A DNA stretch of 64,000 nucleotides from an uncultured bacterium (GTDB lineage: Bacteria; Patescibacteriota; Minisyncoccia; UBA6257; 2-01-FULL-56-20), in NCBI GenBank assembly GCA_963718575.1, contig OY970358.1, positions 805,528-869,527 of the forward strand, in the 5' to 3' direction. The first letter of the stretch is position 1; each line of letters starts with the position of its first letter. The notes beneath the pieces are model-generated. The model did no database searches. It saw only the letters and a list, made by a program, of their open reading frames with translations, and had not been told where the DNA came from. Shown here in pieces: positions 12,004 through 45,547 of this stretch. The position numbers and the translations under genes are program-made.

Positions 12004-13032
12004 ATGAAACTATCCATCGGCATCGTCGGGCTTCCGAACGTGGGCAAGTCGACATTATTCCATCTGATCACCAGGCAGAACATCACGATCGCGAACTATC
12101 CGTTCGCGACGATCGACCCGAACGTGGGCGTCGTTGCCGTTCCCGACGAGCGTCTTGAAAAATTGAACGAACTCAGCAAATCCAAAAAGAAGATCCCGGC
12201 CGTCGTGGAATTCTATGATATCGCGGGGCTTGTGAAGGGCGCCAACAAGGGCGAGGGACTGGGCAGCGATTTTTTGGATGATATACACCTCACCCAGGCG
12301 ATTGTGATGGTCGTGCGCGCGTTCGAGAATCAGGACATCATCCATGTGGAAAATTCGGTGGACCCGGTGCGCGACATCGATATCATTAATCTGGAGCTGA
12401 TATTGAAAGATCTTGCGGCGGTGGATAAGCGCCTTACGCGCGTGGAGGCGGAGGCGCGCGCCGGAAAAAAAGAGGCGCTGCAGGATAAGGAACTGCTCAC
12501 GCGGTTGAAAGGCTCGCTTGAGGGCGGCATCCTGCCCGTAACCGACAAAGAACTCTCCGAAGCGATCAAGAGCGAGCCGCGTTTGAACGACTTGCGCTTG
12601 CTTACCACTAAGCGCCAGCTCTATCTTATCAACGGGAAAGAATCGGATGTTTCTAAGGAATTGCTCGATAAGATCGCCGCGCTCGGTGCGGAATATCTGA
12701 TTGCCGATCTCGCGTCGCCCGAAGCCGAGGCGAACGGCATCCCGCAGCTCGTGAAAAAAGCGTATCACGTGCTCGACCTGATCAGTTTCTTTACGACCGG
12801 CGAGGACGAGACGCGCGCATGGACGATCGAGCGTGGCATGAAGGCGCCGCAGGCATCGGGCGTCATCCACACCGATTTTGAGACGAAGTTCATTCGCATG
12901 GAGGTCGTGCCAACGGACAAATTGCTGGAGGCGGGCGGCTGGAGCAAGGCCAAACAAAAAGGATGGCTTCGCGTGGAAGGGAAGGAGTACGTGGTGGCGG
13001 ATGGCGACGTGGTGGAAGTCCGGCATGGTTAA
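12004..13032 (+). CDS. ychF: Ribosome-binding ATPase YchF (Obg-family GTPase with TGS domain)
   Basis: G1 motif GIVGLPNVGKST, the YchF-typical NxxE, and a C-terminal TGS (VVADGDVVEV). Confidence 0.9.
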   Translation: MKLSIGIVGLPNVGKSTLFHLITRQNITIANYPFATIDPNVGVVAVPDERLEKLNELSKSKKKIPAVVEFYDIAGLVKGANKGEGLGSDFLDDIHLTQAIVMVVRAFENQDIIHVENSVDPVRDIDIINLELILKDLAAVDKRLTRVEAEARAGKKEALQDKELLTRLKGSLEGGILPVTDKELSEAIKSEPRLNDLRLLTTKRQLYLINGKESDVSKELLDKIAALGAEYLIADLASPEAEANGIPQLVKKAYHVLDLISFFTTGEDETRAWTIERGMKAPQASGVIHTDFETKFIRMEVVPTDKLLEAGGWSKAKQKGWLRVEGKEYVVADGDVVEVRHG

Positions 13033-20551: not shown

Positions 20552-22408
20552 ATGGCAAAAATTATCGGAATCGATTTGGGAACCACGAACTCGGCCGTGT
20601 CGGTGATGAAGAACGGCGAGTTGCAGATCTTGGAGAACGCCGAGGGCAATCGCACGACGCCGTCGATCGTGGCGCTCTCAAAAGGCGGGGAGCGGTTGGT
20701 GGGATTGCTCGCGAAGCGCCAGTCGGTGACGAATCCGACGAACACGATCTTTTCGGTGAAGCGTTTGATCGGCCGCAAGTTCACCGATCCGGAGGTGCAG
20801 CGCGACAAAACGTGGCTTCCGTACGAGATCCGCGCGGGTGCGACCGGCGGCGTGGAAGTGAAGATGGGCGATAAGTGGTTTTCGCCGGAGGAAATTTCCG
20901 CGTTCATTTTGAGCAAGCTGAAGGCGGATGCCGAAGCGAAGCTCGGCGAGAAGATCACCGAGGCGGTGATCACCGTGCCGGCGTACTTTGACGATTCGCA
21001 ACGCCAGGCCACGAAGAACGCCGGCGAGATCGCGGGCTTGAAAGTTGACCGCATTCTGAACGAGCCGACGGCGGCGGCGTTCGCGTATGGCGTGAACAAA
21101 GAGAAGAATCAGAAGATCGTCGTCTACGATTTCGGCGGCGGCACGTTCGACGTGTCGGTCCTTGAAATGGGATATGATGCCGAATCGAAAGAGCAGACGG
21201 TGGAAGTTCGCGCGACGGGCGGCGACACGCATCTTGGCGGCGACGACTTCGACAAAAAGATCCAGGAATATTTGGTCGCAGAGTATAAGAAGCAGGAAGG
21301 CATCGACATCTCGAAGGATCCGCTCGCGGTGCAGCGCCTGAAGGAGGCCGCCGAGCGCGCGAAGCACGAGCTCTCGACCGCGGTCGAGACGGAGATCAAC
21401 ATTCCGTACATCTCGAGCGATGCGAACGGGCCGAAGCACTTCCAGATCAAGATGACGCGCGCGAAGCTCGAATCGCTCGTGCAGGAATACATCGACCGCT
21501 CCATCCAACTGACGAAGGAGACGGTGACGTCGCCCGCACCGAAGGGCGCCGGATTCCAGATCGCGGACATCGCGGAGGTGATCCTCGTCGGCGGGCAGAC
21601 GCGCATGCCGGCGATGCAGGATGCGGTGAAGGCGCTGTTCGGCAAGGAGCCGCACCAGGGCATCAATCCGGATGAAGTGGTCGCGCTCGGCGCCGGCATT
21701 CAGGGAGAGATCCTTGCGGCGAAAGCGGAGGGCCGCAAGACCGAAGGCGAAGTGAAAGATATTCTTCTTCTGGATGTGACGCCGCTCTCGCTCAGCATCG
21801 AAACCTATGGCGGCGTGGCAACGCCGATGATCCCGAAGAACACGACCGTGCCGACGGCGAAGTCGCAGGTGTTCAGCACGGCGGCAGACAATCAGACGTC
21901 GGTCGAGGTGCACGTCTTGCAAGGCGAGCGCCCGATGGCGAACGACAACAAGACGCTCGCGAAATTTATTTTGGATGGCATTCCGCCGTCGCCGCGCGGC
22001 ATCCCGCAGGTGGAGGTCACGTTCGATATCGACGCGAACGGCATCTTGAACGTTTCCGCAAAGGACAAGGCGAGCGGCAAGGTGCAGTCCGTCAAAGTGG
22101 AGGCGTCGAGCAATCTTTCAAAGGATGAGATCGAGAAGTTGAAGAAGGACGCCGCCGAACACGCGGCGGAAGACGAGAAGAAGAAAGCGCTCATCGAGAC
22201 GCGCAACCAGGCGGAGTCGCTCGTCTATCTTGCGGAAAAATCCGTAAAGGATGCGGGAGACAAATTGCCGGCTGACGTGAAGACGGGCATTGAAGAGAAA
22301 ATAGCGGCGGTGAAGGGCGTGAAGGACGGCGAGGACGAGCCGGCGATCAAGGCGGCTGTCGAAGCGCTGTCCACGGAGATACAAAAGATCGGGCACTGCG
22401 GCGTATAA
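20552..22408 (+). CDS. dnaK: Chaperone DnaK (Hsp70)
   Basis: [18 protein letters not shown] and a substrate-binding domain; 618 aa. Confidence 0.95.
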
Positions 22409-25377: not shown

Positions 25378-25848
25378 TTAGATCTTCCGAAGAAGAACAT
25401 ACCAGAAGAATTTTATAAATCCCTTTACCTCCCAAAGCAGGGAGCCAACGGGATCCAGGGTTTCCTTGCTTGCGTGGCAGACGATCTCGCCGCGAAATCC
25501 CAGATATCTCCACATGGCGCGGATTCGCCACATGTGATACCACGAACTTACGACGATCACCGAATTTGTCCGGTGTTCCCGAAGAACGCTGAATGCGGTT
25601 TTTGTTTCGCCGAACGTGTTGTGCGCTGTTGCCGGGGTTATCAACCGTTCAGTTGGCCATCCCCAGTTCCTAAGATAGGCAAGAGTAACATGCCTAAGAT
25701 CGGGGATGCTTTCATCAGCCGAAAAGACGATGATCGCATCCGGCAGGCGGTGAGCAACGCGCAGCGCGGTAGTGCATCGCGCCGTAGAATCCTTGTTGAG
25801 AGCGCCCGCCTCGATAGCGCCTCCGTACAACACTACGAATTGCGGCAA
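25378..25848 (-). CDS. DUF218 (YdcF/ElyC-like) domain protein
   Basis: IVFSADESIPD...VSSWYHMWR pattern typical of DUF218. Confidence 0.7.
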   Translation of the reverse strand: MPQFVVLYGGAIEAGALNKDSTARCTTALRVAHRLPDAIIVFSADESIPDLRHVTLAYLRNWGWPTERLITPATAHNTFGETKTAFSVLREHRTNSVIVVSSWYHMWRIRAMWRYLGFRGEIVCHASKETLDPVGSLLWEVKGFIKFFWYVLLRKI

Positions 25849-25956
25849 TCAAATCACCACCTTTCTTTTGAATTTCTAAATATATATTACTATTATTTTA
25901 TTGATATGTCAATTGAAAAAAAATAGAATTTTTATTATGATAAATAGCGTTCTATT

Positions 25957-26032
25957 GCCCCTATAGCTCAGTCCGCGCCGGATCACTTCGGCCATGGTAG
26001 GAAAGCTCCCTTTGGAAATCCCCGCCGGTTCG
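25957..26032 (+). pseudogene. Degenerate tRNA-Lys-like copy (nt 1-19 exact, 21-nt insertion, decayed body to T-stem)
   Basis: GCCCCTATAGCTCAGTCCG is identical to the first 19 nt of the intact tRNA. The following GTAGGAAAGCTCCCTTT..CCGGTTCG is a diverged body. Confidence 0.55.
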
Positions 26033-26036
26033 CTCA

Positions 26037-26179
26037 TTGAAAATATGAATGGATGTCGCTTGTACGCGGCGTGCCCCTATAGCTCAGTCCGGTAGAGCAG
26101 CTCCCTTTTAAGGAGATGGTCCCTGGTTCAAATCCAGGTGGGGGCACGCCGCGCGGAAGGCATCCATTCATATTTTCAA
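26037..26179. repeat. Perfect 19-bp inverted repeat (TTGAAAATATGAATGGATG / CATCCATTCATATTTTCAA) plus 7-bp CGCGGCG/CGCCGCG arms enclosing the tRNA-Lys gene
   Basis: Left arm 26037-26055, right arm 26161-26179. The 7-bp arms abut the tRNA ends. Confidence 0.85.
26073..26146 (+). tRNA. tRNA-Lys (anticodon UUU)
   Basis: Cloverleaf: acceptor GCCCCTA/TGGGGGC, D arm GCTC..GAGC, anticodon loop CTTTTAA, T arm CCTGG-TTCAAAT-CCAGG, discriminator A. CCA is not encoded. Confidence 0.85.
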
Positions 26180-26193
26180 TTCGCCGCCGGCGG

Positions 26194-26306
26194 TAAGGAG
26201 ATGGTCCCTGGTTCGGAATTGGCAGTGAGCTGAAAATGAGAGTCGACTCTCATTTTCAGCGAACGAACCAATTCACAAATTCTTATTTGCTATCCAGGTG
26301 GGGGCA
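26194..26306 (+). pseudogene. tRNA-Lys 3' part (nt 37-57 and 60-74 exact) interrupted in the T-loop by a 77-nt insertion
   Basis: TAAGGAGATGGTCCCTGGTTC [insert 26215-26291] ATCCAGGTGGGGGCA. The insert carries GGAATTGG..CCAATTC and a perfect 32-nt palindrome (26229-26260). Confidence 0.6.
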
Positions 26307-26317
26307 CGAAATTGATT

Positions 26318-26959
26318 ATGGAAACTAAACACACTCTCTATCTGATAGGTGGCGTTCCAAGATCAGGAAAGTCAACGAGCGCAAACAGGATGGCGCGGCA
26401 GGATTTGATTATATTGCCGACCGATTTCATCCGTTCGATCATCAGAAGTGCGCTTATTGGCAATGCGCCGATCAATGTTGGAGCGTTTGCTTTTAATGGT
26501 GCAGCCTCCTATGGGGAACATCAGTCATGGCCAATCGAAGTAAATAATTTAAACGAGGACGCTCTCGCATGGCGTTGCGCCGTAAGTTTGATCAATAATT
26601 ATGACGCCGCAAATCGGCACGATGTTCTTCTTGAAGGTGTCGCCATCACGCCCGAGGAAGTTAACGCGTTGAAGCTCAAGAATTTAATTCTCAAAGTCGT
26701 ATTCGTCGGTTATAACAACGAATCTCACGCGGACAATATCATCGCACATGCCAAGGAAGCGCACGATTATATCTACGGAGAAATGCTGCGAAGTGGTAAG
26801 GGGGACGCTTATGTAAGAGAAAATATAAAAAATGATATTAAGAGAAGTGATGAAATTAAGCTGCAGGCTGAGAAGCTCGGTTATGCATATTTCGATGCCA
26901 CAAAAGCAGCTTCTTTTGAGGACCATATCCAGACGGTGGTGAATTTTCTCCTCAAGTAA
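26318..26959 (+). CDS. P-loop kinase (AAA_33 / polynucleotide-kinase-like Walker A followed by DxxR)
   Basis: LIGGVPRSGKST then LPTDFIRSII (Asp..Arg as in nucleotide/polynucleotide kinases). Lower GC than the surrounding genes. Confidence 0.65.
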   Translation: METKHTLYLIGGVPRSGKSTSANRMARQDLIILPTDFIRSIIRSALIGNAPINVGAFAFNGAASYGEHQSWPIEVNNLNEDALAWRCAVSLINNYDAANRHDVLLEGVAITPEEVNALKLKNLILKVVFVGYNNESHADNIIAHAKEAHDYIYGEMLRSGKGDAYVRENIKNDIKRSDEIKLQAEKLGYAYFDATKAASFEDHIQTVVNFLLK

Positions 26960-29901: not shown

Positions 29902-30588
29902 ATGACATCATCAGAAGAACTCGAAAAAAATATCGGCATCACGTTCGAAAACAAGGATCTTTTGACGGAGGCGTTGACGCATCGTTCATACTTGAACGAA
30001 TATCCCCGCTGGCCACTTCCGCATAACGAGCGGCTGGAATACCTTGGCGACGCCGTGCTCGAACTCCTTGTCTCAGAGGAGCTTTTTAAAAAATTTCCGA
30101 CAGAGCCGGAAGGGCAGCTCACGGTCTATCGCGCGGCGCTTGTGAACTATCAGATCCTGGCGAAGGTGGCCGAGCGGATCGGCATGCAGAAATTCATCCT
30201 GATGTCGCGCGGCGAAAAGAAGGATACCGGCAAGGCGCGCGAGGTCATTTTGGCGAACGCGATGGAGGCGCTGATCGGCGCGATCTATCTCGATCAGGGA
30301 TTCGAGAAGATGCGGCCGTTCGTGCACGATTTCGTGATGAACAATCTCGCCGAAGTGTTGAAGAACAAGAGCTATAAGGACGCGAAGAGCGAGCTGCAGG
30401 AGGTCGTTCAGGAAAAGATGAAGCTGACGCCGACGTACCGCACGCTCGACGAGATCGGTCCCGCGCATAAGCGCGTGTTCACGATGGGCGTCTACTATGG
30501 CGACAAGCTGATCGCGAACGGCAGCGGCCCGTCGAAGCAAGAGGCCGAGCTCGAGGCGGCGAAGAACGCGCTGAAGAAGCATAAATAA
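29902..30588 (+). CDS. rnc: Ribonuclease III
   Basis: ERLEYLGDAVLEL signature and a C-terminal dsRBD (GSGPSKQEAELEAAKNAL). Confidence 0.9.
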   Translation: MTSSEELEKNIGITFENKDLLTEALTHRSYLNEYPRWPLPHNERLEYLGDAVLELLVSEELFKKFPTEPEGQLTVYRAALVNYQILAKVAERIGMQKFILMSRGEKKDTGKAREVILANAMEALIGAIYLDQGFEKMRPFVHDFVMNNLAEVLKNKSYKDAKSELQEVVQEKMKLTPTYRTLDEIGPAHKRVFTMGVYYGDKLIANGSGPSKQEAELEAAKNALKKHK

Positions 30589-45202: not shown

Positions 45203-45547
45203 ATGATCGAAAAGATAAAAAAGTACCGCCTGGTCAGCCTGCTCTCGCTTGGTTCGCTCGCGCTCGCCGCCGGCGGATTCTTCTGGGCGCTCGGCGCGCT
45301 ATCCGGCGTCGCTTCCGGCCCGCTCATTTTACACTTCAACGATATGCAGGGAATCACGAGTATCGGGGGATTGAGCGATCTTATCCTGATGGGCATCCTC
45401 GGGATTGTCATCGTGGTCGTGAACTTTTTCATCGCACTGGACCTTGAGGCGCGTAACCCGGCGCTGGGGAAGATCGTCGCCGCGATGACGCTCATCATGG
45501 CGGTCTTGCTTTTTTTGGCCTTCGCGGCTATAATCAAAGTCAATTAA
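45203..45547 (+). CDS. Small membrane protein
   Basis: Three hydrophobic helices. Confidence 0.45.
   Translation: MIEKIKKYRLVSLLSLGSLALAAGGFFWALGALSGVASGPLILHFNDMQGITSIGGLSDLILMGILGIVIVVVNFFIALDLEARNPALGKIVAAMTLIMAVLLFLAFAAIIKVN

Follow-up and report, generated by a model that had tools for sequence, protein, structure and literature searches.

A tRNA-Lys(UUU) gene nested within a broken copy of itself in a Patescibacteria genome, and a covarying helix that surrounds it

The stretch of DNA analysed here, 64,000 nucleotides (nt) of contig OY970358.1 (positions 805,528 to 869,527; hereafter the window), carries an intact tRNA-Lys(UUU) gene, the inner tRNA, standing between the two halves of a second, interrupted tRNA-Lys(UUU), the outer gene. 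The segment that separates the outer halves is called the cassette, and its helical parts are named Pa to Pd. Position pairs such as 35/36 follow canonical tRNA numbering, and L numbers denote related loci or contigs compared with the window. Neither a tRNA gene nested in its own copy nor split-like bacterial tRNA genes were described in the literature searched (full-text, with incomplete coverage) and, as far as we found, the tRNA-within-tRNA arrangement has not been previously described. The features of the locus are as follows.

25913-25941, plus strand: sigma-70-like promoter (TTGAAA, 17-nt spacer, TATGAT; 10/12 consensus matches), probable promoter of the whole unit
25957-26013, plus strand: outer tRNA-Lys 5' half, canonical nt 1-35, decayed (repeat comparison)
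25957-25975, plus strand: exact copy of nt 1-19 within the outer 5' half (100% identity)
25976-25995, plus strand: 20-nt insert that folds as a hairpin (-7.7 kcal/mol), D loop of the outer 5' half
25996-26013, plus strand: rest of the outer 5' half, with three mismatches breaking the D stem (83% identity)
26014-26021, plus strand: GGAAATCC, remnant of the small 5' cassette hairpin Pa, which does not fold here
26022-26072, plus strand: left half of the leader-trailer helix (repeats, 42 intermolecular pairs with the right half, covariation)
26022-26029, plus strand: Pb, left strand, part of the left helix half
26030-26035, plus strand: invariant loop TCGCTC between Pb and Pc, left half
26036-26055, plus strand: Pc, left strand, the left arm of the initial annotation (perfect inverted repeat)
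26056-26064, plus strand: loop between Pc and Pd, left half
26065-26071, plus strand: Pd, left strand, followed by N-1 at 26072; extends the inner acceptor stem
26073-26146, plus strand: inner intact tRNA-Lys(UUU), the working gene (ARAGORN; Rfam RF00005)
26147-26193, plus strand: right half of the leader-trailer helix (repeats, cofold, covariation)
26147-26153, 26154-26160 and 26161-26180, plus strand: Pd, loop CGGAAGG and Pc (right arm of the initial annotation) of the right half
26181-26185 and 26186-26193, plus strand: loop TCGCC and Pb of the right half
26194-26214, plus strand: outer 3' half, first piece, canonical nt 36-56 (21 nt, 100% identical to the inner tRNA)
26215-26291, minus strand: T-loop insert, matching an inverted cassette frame without tRNA (covariance model and alignment)
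26216-26222 and 26268-26274: outer helix of the T-loop insert, with loops at 26223-26228 and 26261-26267 and the palindrome at 26229-26260
26275-26291: tail hairpin of the T-loop insert, reverse complement of Pa
26292-26306, plus strand: outer 3' half, second piece, canonical nt 59-73 (identical to the inner tRNA)

The inner gene is a full-length 74-nt tRNA-Lys(UUU), called by ARAGORN and by Rfam (RF00005, 68.2 bits), in agreement with the initial annotation of this DNA. The inverted repeat that the annotation had placed around it is real and perfect, measuring 20 bp (26036-26055 and 26161-26180; repeat finder) and not 19 as first stated, and its arms have no further copy within the 64-kb window (expected 0.03). 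The 7-bp CGCGGCG/CGCCGCG arms reported to abut the tRNA were also found (26065-26071 and 26147-26153), and they prolong the acceptor stem by way of T26072-A26146, so that a perfect inverted repeat of 13 nt results (26065-26077 and 26141-26153). Upstream, 20 nt are identical to the tRNA region (25956-25975 and 26072-26091) and positions 25996-26013 show 83% identity to tRNA positions 26091-26108; the exact nt 1-19 and the diverged body noted earlier are thus present, and the insertion between them (25976-25995) is 20 nt long instead of the 21 first counted. Downstream, as had been described, two exact tracts are split in the T loop by a 77-nt insert with inverted repeats: the first tract, of 21 nt, runs from the anticodon loop to the T loop (26194-26214, identical to 26109-26129), the second, of 17 nt, holds the last 15 tRNA nt and 2 nt beyond (26292-26308, identical to 26132-26148), and the insert contains a perfect 32-bp palindrome (26229-26260). 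In canonical terms the upstream copy ends after U35 and the downstream copy begins at U36, with a gap of 47 nt between the intact tRNA and the downstream half. Compared with shuffles, the whole region folds with a z score of -7.7.

Pieces homologous to those flanking the tRNA were present in several relatives. The junction between right arm and 3' half, used to find additional loci in a metagenome scan, is kept in the window, in four GTDB relatives (L017, L024, L028, L055) and in ten metagenome stretches. Two of the loci, L092 and L098, are pristine: upstream lies an exact copy of nt 1-35, downstream an exact copy of nt 36-73, there is no other insert, and the split at 35/36 is precise, with nothing lost and nothing duplicated. 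The cassette order is Pa, Pb (8 bp), an invariant loop, Pc (about 20 bp), a second loop and Pd, with the inner tRNA at the tip. An exact, insert-free copy of nt 1-35 is present in L092, L095, L096, L098 and L101, of which L095 and L101 have the layout of the window with an intact 5' half; L024, on a closed 0.9-Mb chromosome, shows the full layout in decayed form. Pa is a hairpin of 4-8 bp in six other lineages, where its stem sequences differ and covary. One-sided forms were also recorded, either with tRNA, right arm and 3' half only (L017, L028, L055, L094) or with 5' half, left arm and tRNA only (L035), and five relatives (L013, L014, L015, L018, L020) have a clean single tRNA-Lys with no flanking copies. 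Furthermore, one contig (L096 13160-13901 plus L100 1-60) bears an array of two units of 5' half and left arm, a tRNA, and six units of right arm and 3' half. The same array includes one truncated left arm, its six 3' units differ slightly, and its unequal counts, taken from a short-read assembly, may be real or an assembly effect.

Among these forms the window locus is a degraded member, with a D-loop insert, a broken D stem, a Pa that does not fold and an interrupted T loop, and its outer gene is a pseudogene. The D-stem changes of the window read GGAA for GAGC, and the outer copy in L096 is marked by ATTG/CGAAT variants. Decay of the outer gene was seen as well in L024, L028, L055, L094 and L096, and in no lineage examined is the interrupted outer gene the only copy. 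Where the outer halves persist, they follow the lineage-specific changes of the inner tRNA. An ARAGORN search with introns allowed did not rebuild the outer gene. Two interpretations of the upstream segments were tried and rejected: GGAAATCCCCGCCGGTTCG, considered as decayed tRNA nt 39-57, corresponds to the Pa remnant, Pb and the conserved cassette loop, and a dead tRNA-Lys(CUU) as the source of the upstream copy is contradicted by the pristine relatives, which carry exact nt 1-35 of the UUU gene.

The pristine loci also bear on the simplest account of the region, namely that it is a neutral local duplication, with leftover tandem tRNA-Lys copies such as a dead tRNA-Lys(CUU) upstream and an inverted repeat that is a young accident. 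Distant relatives (e.g., L032, L034) do carry a tandem tRNA-Lys(CUU)-tRNA-Lys(UUU) after dnaJ, and the outer copy of the window is decaying, as that account would have it. However, the break points of the pristine loci are complementary (nt 1-35 and from nt 36) and not two independent truncations, tandem copying gives directly repeated spacers and not inverted ones, and the helix covaries in seven lineages with invariant loops (see below), so that we give this account hardly any credence. According to the initial annotation, relatives with a single clean tRNA-Lys, together with transcripts of the mature 74-nt tRNA only, would reduce the locus to a local duplication scar without function. The five clean relatives do exist, but the others share the structure with compensatory changes; the locus is therefore not a functionless local scar.

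Regarding its age, identity between lineages was compared for the cassette and for the flanks. The values were 94% in the cassette against 85% in the flanks for the window and L095, 92% against 84% for the window and L101, 89% against 81% for L095 and L101, and about 80% against 71-73% for L024. Cassette identity ranks as flank identity does, and the non-tRNA parts of the cassette diverge about as fast as neighbouring coding DNA. Since cassette divergence tracks that of the flanks, an old, mainly vertical descent fits. Empty sites occur among close relatives of cassette carriers, as in L013 compared with L101 (86% flank identity) and L021 compared with L024 (86-95%).

Two of the related loci deserve a note on gene calling. 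In L064 (7100-7620) the 'tRNA-Gln(ttg)' of ARAGORN is a decayed tRNA-Lys-like pseudogene, with a decayed tRNA/right-arm/3'-half remnant 320-430 nt upstream of it, and the working tRNA-Lys of that genome must lie elsewhere. The same program labels as 'tRNA-Stop(tta)' normal tRNA-Lys(UUU) genes with the loop CTTTTAA in L017 (11904-11977), L094 and L097, a label that looks like a one-base register error and not a suppressor tRNA.

The leader-trailer helix is approximately 45 bp long. Cofolds gave the same layout, with 37-43 leader-trailer pairs, in 7/7 lineages that have both arms, despite differing arm sequences. A gap-free alignment of these seven lineages over Pb, loop, Pc, Pd and acceptor stem had 96.5% of its cells paired and changes on both sides in 20/45 pairs, a degree of covariation reached by 0/500 shuffles; when the partner was slid by 1-3 columns as a control, only 1-4 double-changed pairs were counted. 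The unpaired loops are largely or wholly invariant, with TTCGCTC opposite TCGCTG, and CGGAA conserved in the loop beside Pd. Homogenisation of a hairpin would make its loops complementary; these loops are invariant instead, which points to selection on a structured element. Judging from the alignment, the helix appears to be maintained by selection. The other tRNA of the window has no comparable helix. A CIRCE-like operator (controlling inverted repeat of chaperone expression) was considered for the loop sequences and rejected, as read from the sequence these are direct repeats, not inverted ones.

What the helix may do for the inner tRNA was approached by partition-function folding. With the native arms the inner acceptor stem forms with a probability (P) of 0.97, and shuffling of the right segment lowers this to about 0.5. 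In the pristine L092, after the same shuffling, the inner 5' strand pairs with the outer 3' half (P = 0.41). In consensus scans, all promoter-like sites were located at 25868-25941, with none in the interval from the outer 5' half to the intact tRNA; the stretch 25700-26500 contained no terminator. An internal promoter suspected in the left arm (TTGAAA) was discarded for want of an acceptable -10 element. The candidate promoter upstream is placed relative to the tRNA 5' end as in the clean relative L013. With promoters only upstream and no internal terminator, the inner tRNA would most simply be obtained from a long precursor. Moreover, a gene for RNase III (Pfam) lies at 29902-30588, 3.7 kb downstream of the locus.

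The T-loop insert gave a second view of the cassette. A covariance model built from the bare module, with the tRNA left out, matched 26274-26216 on the minus strand at full length (59.4 bits, E 2e-12), and the plus strand of the insert reached only 20.5 bits, from the palindrome. The reverse complement of the 77-nt insert aligns end to end with the cassette frame, with 48-56 matches against 37-45 for the same-strand control, and its tail hairpin corresponds to Pa, with compensatory changes. The model also found the equivalent T-loop inserts of L095, L101 and L017/L097, again on the strand that does not carry the tRNA. The T-loop insert is therefore an inverted copy of the cassette without its tRNA. 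The pieces flanking it in L017 rejoin to the exact T loop GGTTCG|AATCC, and the insertions in the T loop (57/58) and in the anticodon loop (35/36) both follow the fourth nt of a 7-nt loop closed by a 5-bp stem. Away from tRNA-Lys, a single tRNA-less copy of the module was identified, in the grpE-dnaK spacer of L027 (2046-2108; 35 bits, 27% GC); apart from it, model and motif scans of the 64-kb window and of related loci totalling 1.39 Mb found the module nowhere else. With only two copies in 64 kb, both at the locus, the module does not behave as a dispersed palindromic repeat of the repetitive extragenic palindrome or miniature inverted-repeat transposable element (REP/MITE) type. A further match at 45245-45276 of the window (19.6 bits; sharing GGTTCGCTC and TCGCCGCCGGCGG) lies inside a membrane-protein open reading frame (ORF; 45203-45547) and was judged to be due to chance.

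Distant loci with a comparable plan carry small GIY-YIG nuclease genes. In L091, the tRNA-Ala(UGC) region (12308-12871) begins with a 5' fragment ending at nt 35, continues with a GIY-YIG gene (12364-12600) between inverted repeats, and then presents an intact tRNA (12649-12719) with a 23-nt leader-trailer helix and a 3' copy with an 86-nt T-loop insert, which is the same overall plan as that of the window locus. A looser version, in which partial copies are broken by hairpins or small palindromes, is seen at the tRNA-Lys genes of L091 (11590-12210) and L065 (11780-12500), in both of which a GIY-YIG gene separates the intact tRNA from a fragmented 5' copy. In L065 the D, anticodon and T loops of the partial copies contain the palindrome TCCGCCAGCCGGCGGA five times in all, and two 101-nt tandem pseudo-units are present. 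L091 and L065 are distant Patescibacteria, with about 42% DnaJ identity. Their nucleases (Pfam PF01541, E about 1e-15) have about 80-95 amino acids and consist of the catalytic domain only, and the small GIY-YIG family to which they belong counts at least 7,700 members of 84-95 amino acids at many unrelated intergenic sites. The motif ATCCCGTTAGAGA is conserved about 10 nt upstream of the GIY-YIG start codon in L052 and in all five of L102-L106. In two loci the gene lies between perfect inverted repeats, of 22 nt in L048 (3267-3563) and of 14 nt in L052 (9721-10002). The small GIY-YIG gene looks like a mobile unit in its own right.

Taken as a whole, we lean, with moderate confidence, towards an old tRNA-within-tRNA whose inner gene works and whose helix serves as a folding guide or processing stem at the RNA level. 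What was observed directly is how the locus is built, that its helix covaries and has invariant loops, and that the outer gene can be dispensed with. Under this explanation, an ancestor in a peat/soil clade of Patescibacteria (Paceibacteria-like) would have had one tRNA-Lys(UUU) split exactly at 35/36 by a cassette with a complete second tRNA-Lys(UUU) at the helix tip, and inheritance since then would have been mostly vertical. The inner tRNA, which would have no promoter of its own, would be transcribed from that of the outer gene, with the outer 5' half and left arm as leader and the right arm and outer 3' half as trailer. The helix would zip the ends of the inner pre-tRNA together, preventing mispairing with the look-alike outer halves, and would then offer a double-stranded substrate, probably to RNase III, so that RNase P and 3' trimming can act on the freed pre-tRNA. 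The T-loop insert probably arose once, in the common ancestor of four lineages, perhaps through a replication template switch across a folded stem, and the clean and one-sided forms may have originated by deletion between the directly repeated tRNA halves. As to the origin of the cassette, analogy with the distant loci makes a homing-type insertion by a GIY-YIG nuclease the leading candidate, an attractive hypothesis.

Several points weigh against this explanation or parts of it. We infer co-transcription, RNase III cleavage and any RNA role from the sequence. The informative pair cells comprise five variable G.U and one invariant U.G against three A.C, a tally with too few cells to tell a constraint on RNA apart from symmetry of the DNA. 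The folding test was computed at equilibrium, and RNA that folds locally during transcription might do without the arms. In the four one-sided loci L017, L028, L055 and L094 the right arm is kept together with its junction after loss of the left arm, something that a pure pairing role does not account for. The outer halves of the window are identical to the inner tRNA over only the 15-21-nt tracts flanking the T-loop insert, and such short identical tracts require very short gene-conversion tracts or unexplained selection. The module, found inverted in the T loop and once off tRNA-Lys (L027), fits DNA-level copying. Finally, regarding the homing origin, tblastn detected no GIY-YIG homologue in the window or in any window-type cassette, and tRNA neighbours were absent in 5/5 sampled GIY-YIG contexts (L102-L106), by which these nucleases were rejected as general companions of tRNA genes.

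Some of these points lead to an explanation entirely at the DNA level, in which a mobile hairpin cassette, a frame of about 77 nt with or without tRNA cargo, inserts midway into 7-nt loops of stem-loop-forming DNA and has no RNA role. A structure-specific or homing nuclease, for instance a small GIY-YIG enzyme, may cut the target, and the arms would serve mobility or copying. The matching insertion points after the fourth nt (35/36, and 57/58 exactly in L017), without duplication or loss, agree with it, as do the two orientations of the frame with the L027 copy, the L096/L100 array, expected from repeated insertion into the carried tRNA, and the patchiness among close relatives. It would equally accommodate the nested GIY-YIG tRNA loci (two in L091, one in L065) and the inverted-repeat-flanked genes of L048 and L052, and at the invariant U.G of the main copy the T-loop copy has C and A, as if the DNA sequence and not the pair had been kept. 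Nevertheless, the module is not dispersed, L027 being its sole extra copy beyond the locus in 64 kb and 1.39 Mb, no nuclease or transposase occurs in or near any window-type cassette, and cassette divergence follows that of the host. Moreover, invariant non-complementary loops are hard to explain by copying alone, the array counts are unequal in a short-read assembly, and the sampled GIY-YIG genes are not tRNA-associated. On balance we regard a purely DNA-level cassette as unlikely, if well short of far-fetched.

Returning to the RNA-level explanation, its processing stem was the second of three possibilities raised in the initial annotation and is the best supported of them, given covariation of the helix across seven lineages and a nearby gene for RNase III; the part of the enzyme and the cleavage themselves are putative. 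Stems of this kind, pairing leader with trailer, are RNase III substrates in bacterial rRNA operons, and phage T7 early mRNAs have RNase III sites with internal loops. The window locus resembles them in a duplex of at least 20 bp that flanks a mature RNA (a 20-bp helix, a 7-bp helix running into the 7-bp acceptor stem, and an 8-bp helix), in conserved internal loops, in compensatory, covarying pairs and in the presence of an RNase III gene in the window. It differs in enclosing a single tRNA and not an rRNA, clean relatives do without the stem, and its cleavage is putative.

Another possibility is that the outer gene is, or formerly was in pristine lineages, a working intron-containing tRNA-Lys, the cassette representing a new bacterial tRNA intron that encodes a tRNA and is removed by host enzymes, with two tRNA-Lys per transcript; the window would then be a lineage whose outer gene died, and the intron would be neither group I nor bulge-helix-bulge. 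Self-splicing group I introns at 35/36 have been described for the Asn and Asp tRNAs of Patescibacteria (PMC13011429; Nakagawa et al., mSystems 2026), and that paper never mentions tRNA-Lys. The cassette shares with these introns the phylum, the unusual site 35/36, a 5' exon ending in U, an insert ending in G, a patchy distribution and, in the pristine lineages, exons that rejoin to a perfect tRNA. Indeed, an anticodon-loop insertion after U with rejoinable exons is found in L092 and L098, the window exons being decayed. In contrast to group I introns, the cassette has no catalytic core, has about 120 nt of non-tRNA sequence and carries a full copy of the tRNA that it interrupts. No Rfam Intron_gpI core was found in the window (E up to 10) or, at E up to 1, in the pristine L092, in L091 or in L065, and no other Rfam ribozyme or intron family was found in the scanned loci. 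Sequence and folds likewise showed no P1 pairing, the cassette starting with Pa and then CCGCCGG, with no segment complementary to CCCUUU.

Split and intron-containing tRNA genes of archaea, with complementary leader and trailer, provide a further comparison (Nanoarchaeum-type; permuted and split tRNAs, PMC3218864). As in archaeal split tRNAs, the halves are broken in the anticodon loop and joined by a long helix beside the break, and complementary sequences beside the break (37-43 pairs, covarying) are indeed present. Unlike them, the host is a bacterium, the halves are in cis with an intact copy between them, and the outer gene, which is decaying, is dispensable. The seven-lineage cofolds show a three-way junction, the 5' break lying at the foot of Pa and the 3' break at that of Pb, and no bulge-helix-bulge was seen at these breaks, with no 3-nt bulge pair 4 bp apart. 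An archaeal origin with bulge-helix-bulge splicing, guessed from the AT-rich upstream region, was also dismissed on the bacterial gene set and on that missing motif.

For an intron, then, speak the exons that rebuild a perfect tRNA in L092 and L098, the site 35/36 shared with the introns of the Asn and Asp tRNAs (PMC13011429), the direct closure of Pb at both junctions, which brings the splice sites together, a conserved and covarying Pa that stands at the 5' junction and seems of no obvious service to the inner tRNA, and outer halves that follow the changes of the inner one. But neither a group I core, nor a known ribozyme or intron family, nor a readable P1 pairing supports it, the junction is a three-way junction and not a bulge-helix-bulge, the outer gene decays freely (window, L024, L028, L055, L094, L096) and is never the only copy, and identical exons can be explained by gene conversion from the inner copy. 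A working intron is accordingly an improbable explanation in our view. The idea of a second tRNA-Lys 3' exon with an intervening sequence in the T loop, put forward in the initial annotation, was right as anatomy (the piece is the 3' half of the outer gene, and the T-loop interruption recurs in four lineages) and not as to splicing: the outer gene is dead in the window and is relied on in no lineage, and the insert is the neighbouring hairpin in inverted form, so that splicing is neither needed nor indicated.

Integrative elements leave attachment (att) scars at tRNA genes, for which anticodon-loop and T-loop sublocation classes exist. Among the explanations first offered were also scars of this kind, left at tRNA-Lys by an integrase-bearing element that repeatedly integrated and was excised in a site-specific manner, and a 3' half that begins in the anticodon loop, with an intact tRNA upstream of it, is indeed a classic attR-type signature. 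As in att scars, the 3' part of the tRNA is duplicated downstream and the breaks lie in the anticodon and T loops; the content of neighbouring genes also varies, and a kinase-like ORF (26312-26959) has no homologue in related loci. However, integration does not produce an upstream 5' half nor nesting around complementary arms, where tandem copies would be expected; there is no island, no duplicated core is present at the junctions, which sum exactly to the intact loop, and only 47 nt lie between the tRNA and the 3' half. Pfam tables list no integrase or transposase within 10 kb on either side of the locus, which confirms over at least that distance what had been noted earlier about integrases. 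Besides, the junction pattern had 0 matches in 2.9 million viral contigs, the gene order around the locus is conserved, and the helix covaries across species. The integration-scar reading is thereby largely refuted, and we take it as very improbable.

The cassette may also be compared with the free-standing GIY-YIG homing endonucleases that reside in tRNA clusters, such as SegB of phage T4 (PMC2330249), for which SegB-driven segmental amplification has been described (PMC13096335). L091 and L065 are similar in having GIY-YIG genes between a tRNA fragment and an intact tRNA, a patchy occurrence and amplified, repeated tRNA segments. In contrast, the window cassette has no nuclease gene, and most sampled members of the family are away from tRNAs. 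As expected of a homing cassette, the insertion is precise and patchy among close relatives, and a nuclease ORF within the insert occurs only at L091 and L065.

To our knowledge, disrupted tRNA genes (with multiple introns, split or permuted) are regarded as archaeal or eukaryotic, self-splicing introns being the only kind known in bacteria. In the present locus the anticodon loop of a bacterial tRNA gene is interrupted by an element that is not a known intron and that carries a spare copy of the broken gene, which would constitute a second route, besides splicing, for tolerating an insertion into an essential single-copy tRNA gene. One clade presents pristine, one-sided, arrayed and decayed stages of tRNA-gene fragmentation, and the locus defines a covarying RNA-like helix with invariant loops. 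If the outer gene did prove to hold an intron, this would be a new class of bacterial tRNA introns and a bacterial counterpart of archaeal split tRNAs.

With respect to the organism, the genes of the window are bacterial (hrcA-grpE-dnaK-dnaJ, RNase HII, nusB, RNase III (rnc), a short SMC and rpsP), and the closest species representatives in GTDB belong to the Patescibacteria (Paceibacterota, Parcubacteria, Minisyncoccia), with peat and soil as the source of many. A tRNA-Lys(UUU) shortly 3' of dnaJ is an old trait of this group. An assembly artefact was rejected, since L001 and L008, which are assemblies from other samples, are 100% identical to the window across the locus. Short-read contigs do break in it: L002 and L003 stop at 26197, the 32-bp palindrome (26230-26231) is where L009 and L010 begin, and the contig of the closest GTDB relative, L012, ends (3742) exactly at nt 35 of a tRNA-Lys 5' half. 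Population variation at 26197 was considered and rejected, as the contigs all come from a single, 100%-identical strain and the breaks can be put down to the palindrome and repeats. Because loci of this type fragment metagenome assemblies and tRNA finders report the inner gene only, the arrangement is probably under-reported.

Elsewhere, the window differs from L001 (99.8% identity over 21 kb) by three extra single C at 22394, 22846 and 22988, the first of which gives a DnaK of 618 amino acids against 650 in L001; these may be sequencing or assembly indels or real frameshifts. The kinase-like, lower-GC P-loop ORF mentioned above begins 5 nt past the outer 3' half, and it matched nothing in Pfam and lacked a homologue at every related locus. 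The occurrence of DUF218 and HIT genes is patchy as well, and the surroundings of the tRNA-Lys locus are thus a hot spot of gene-content change.

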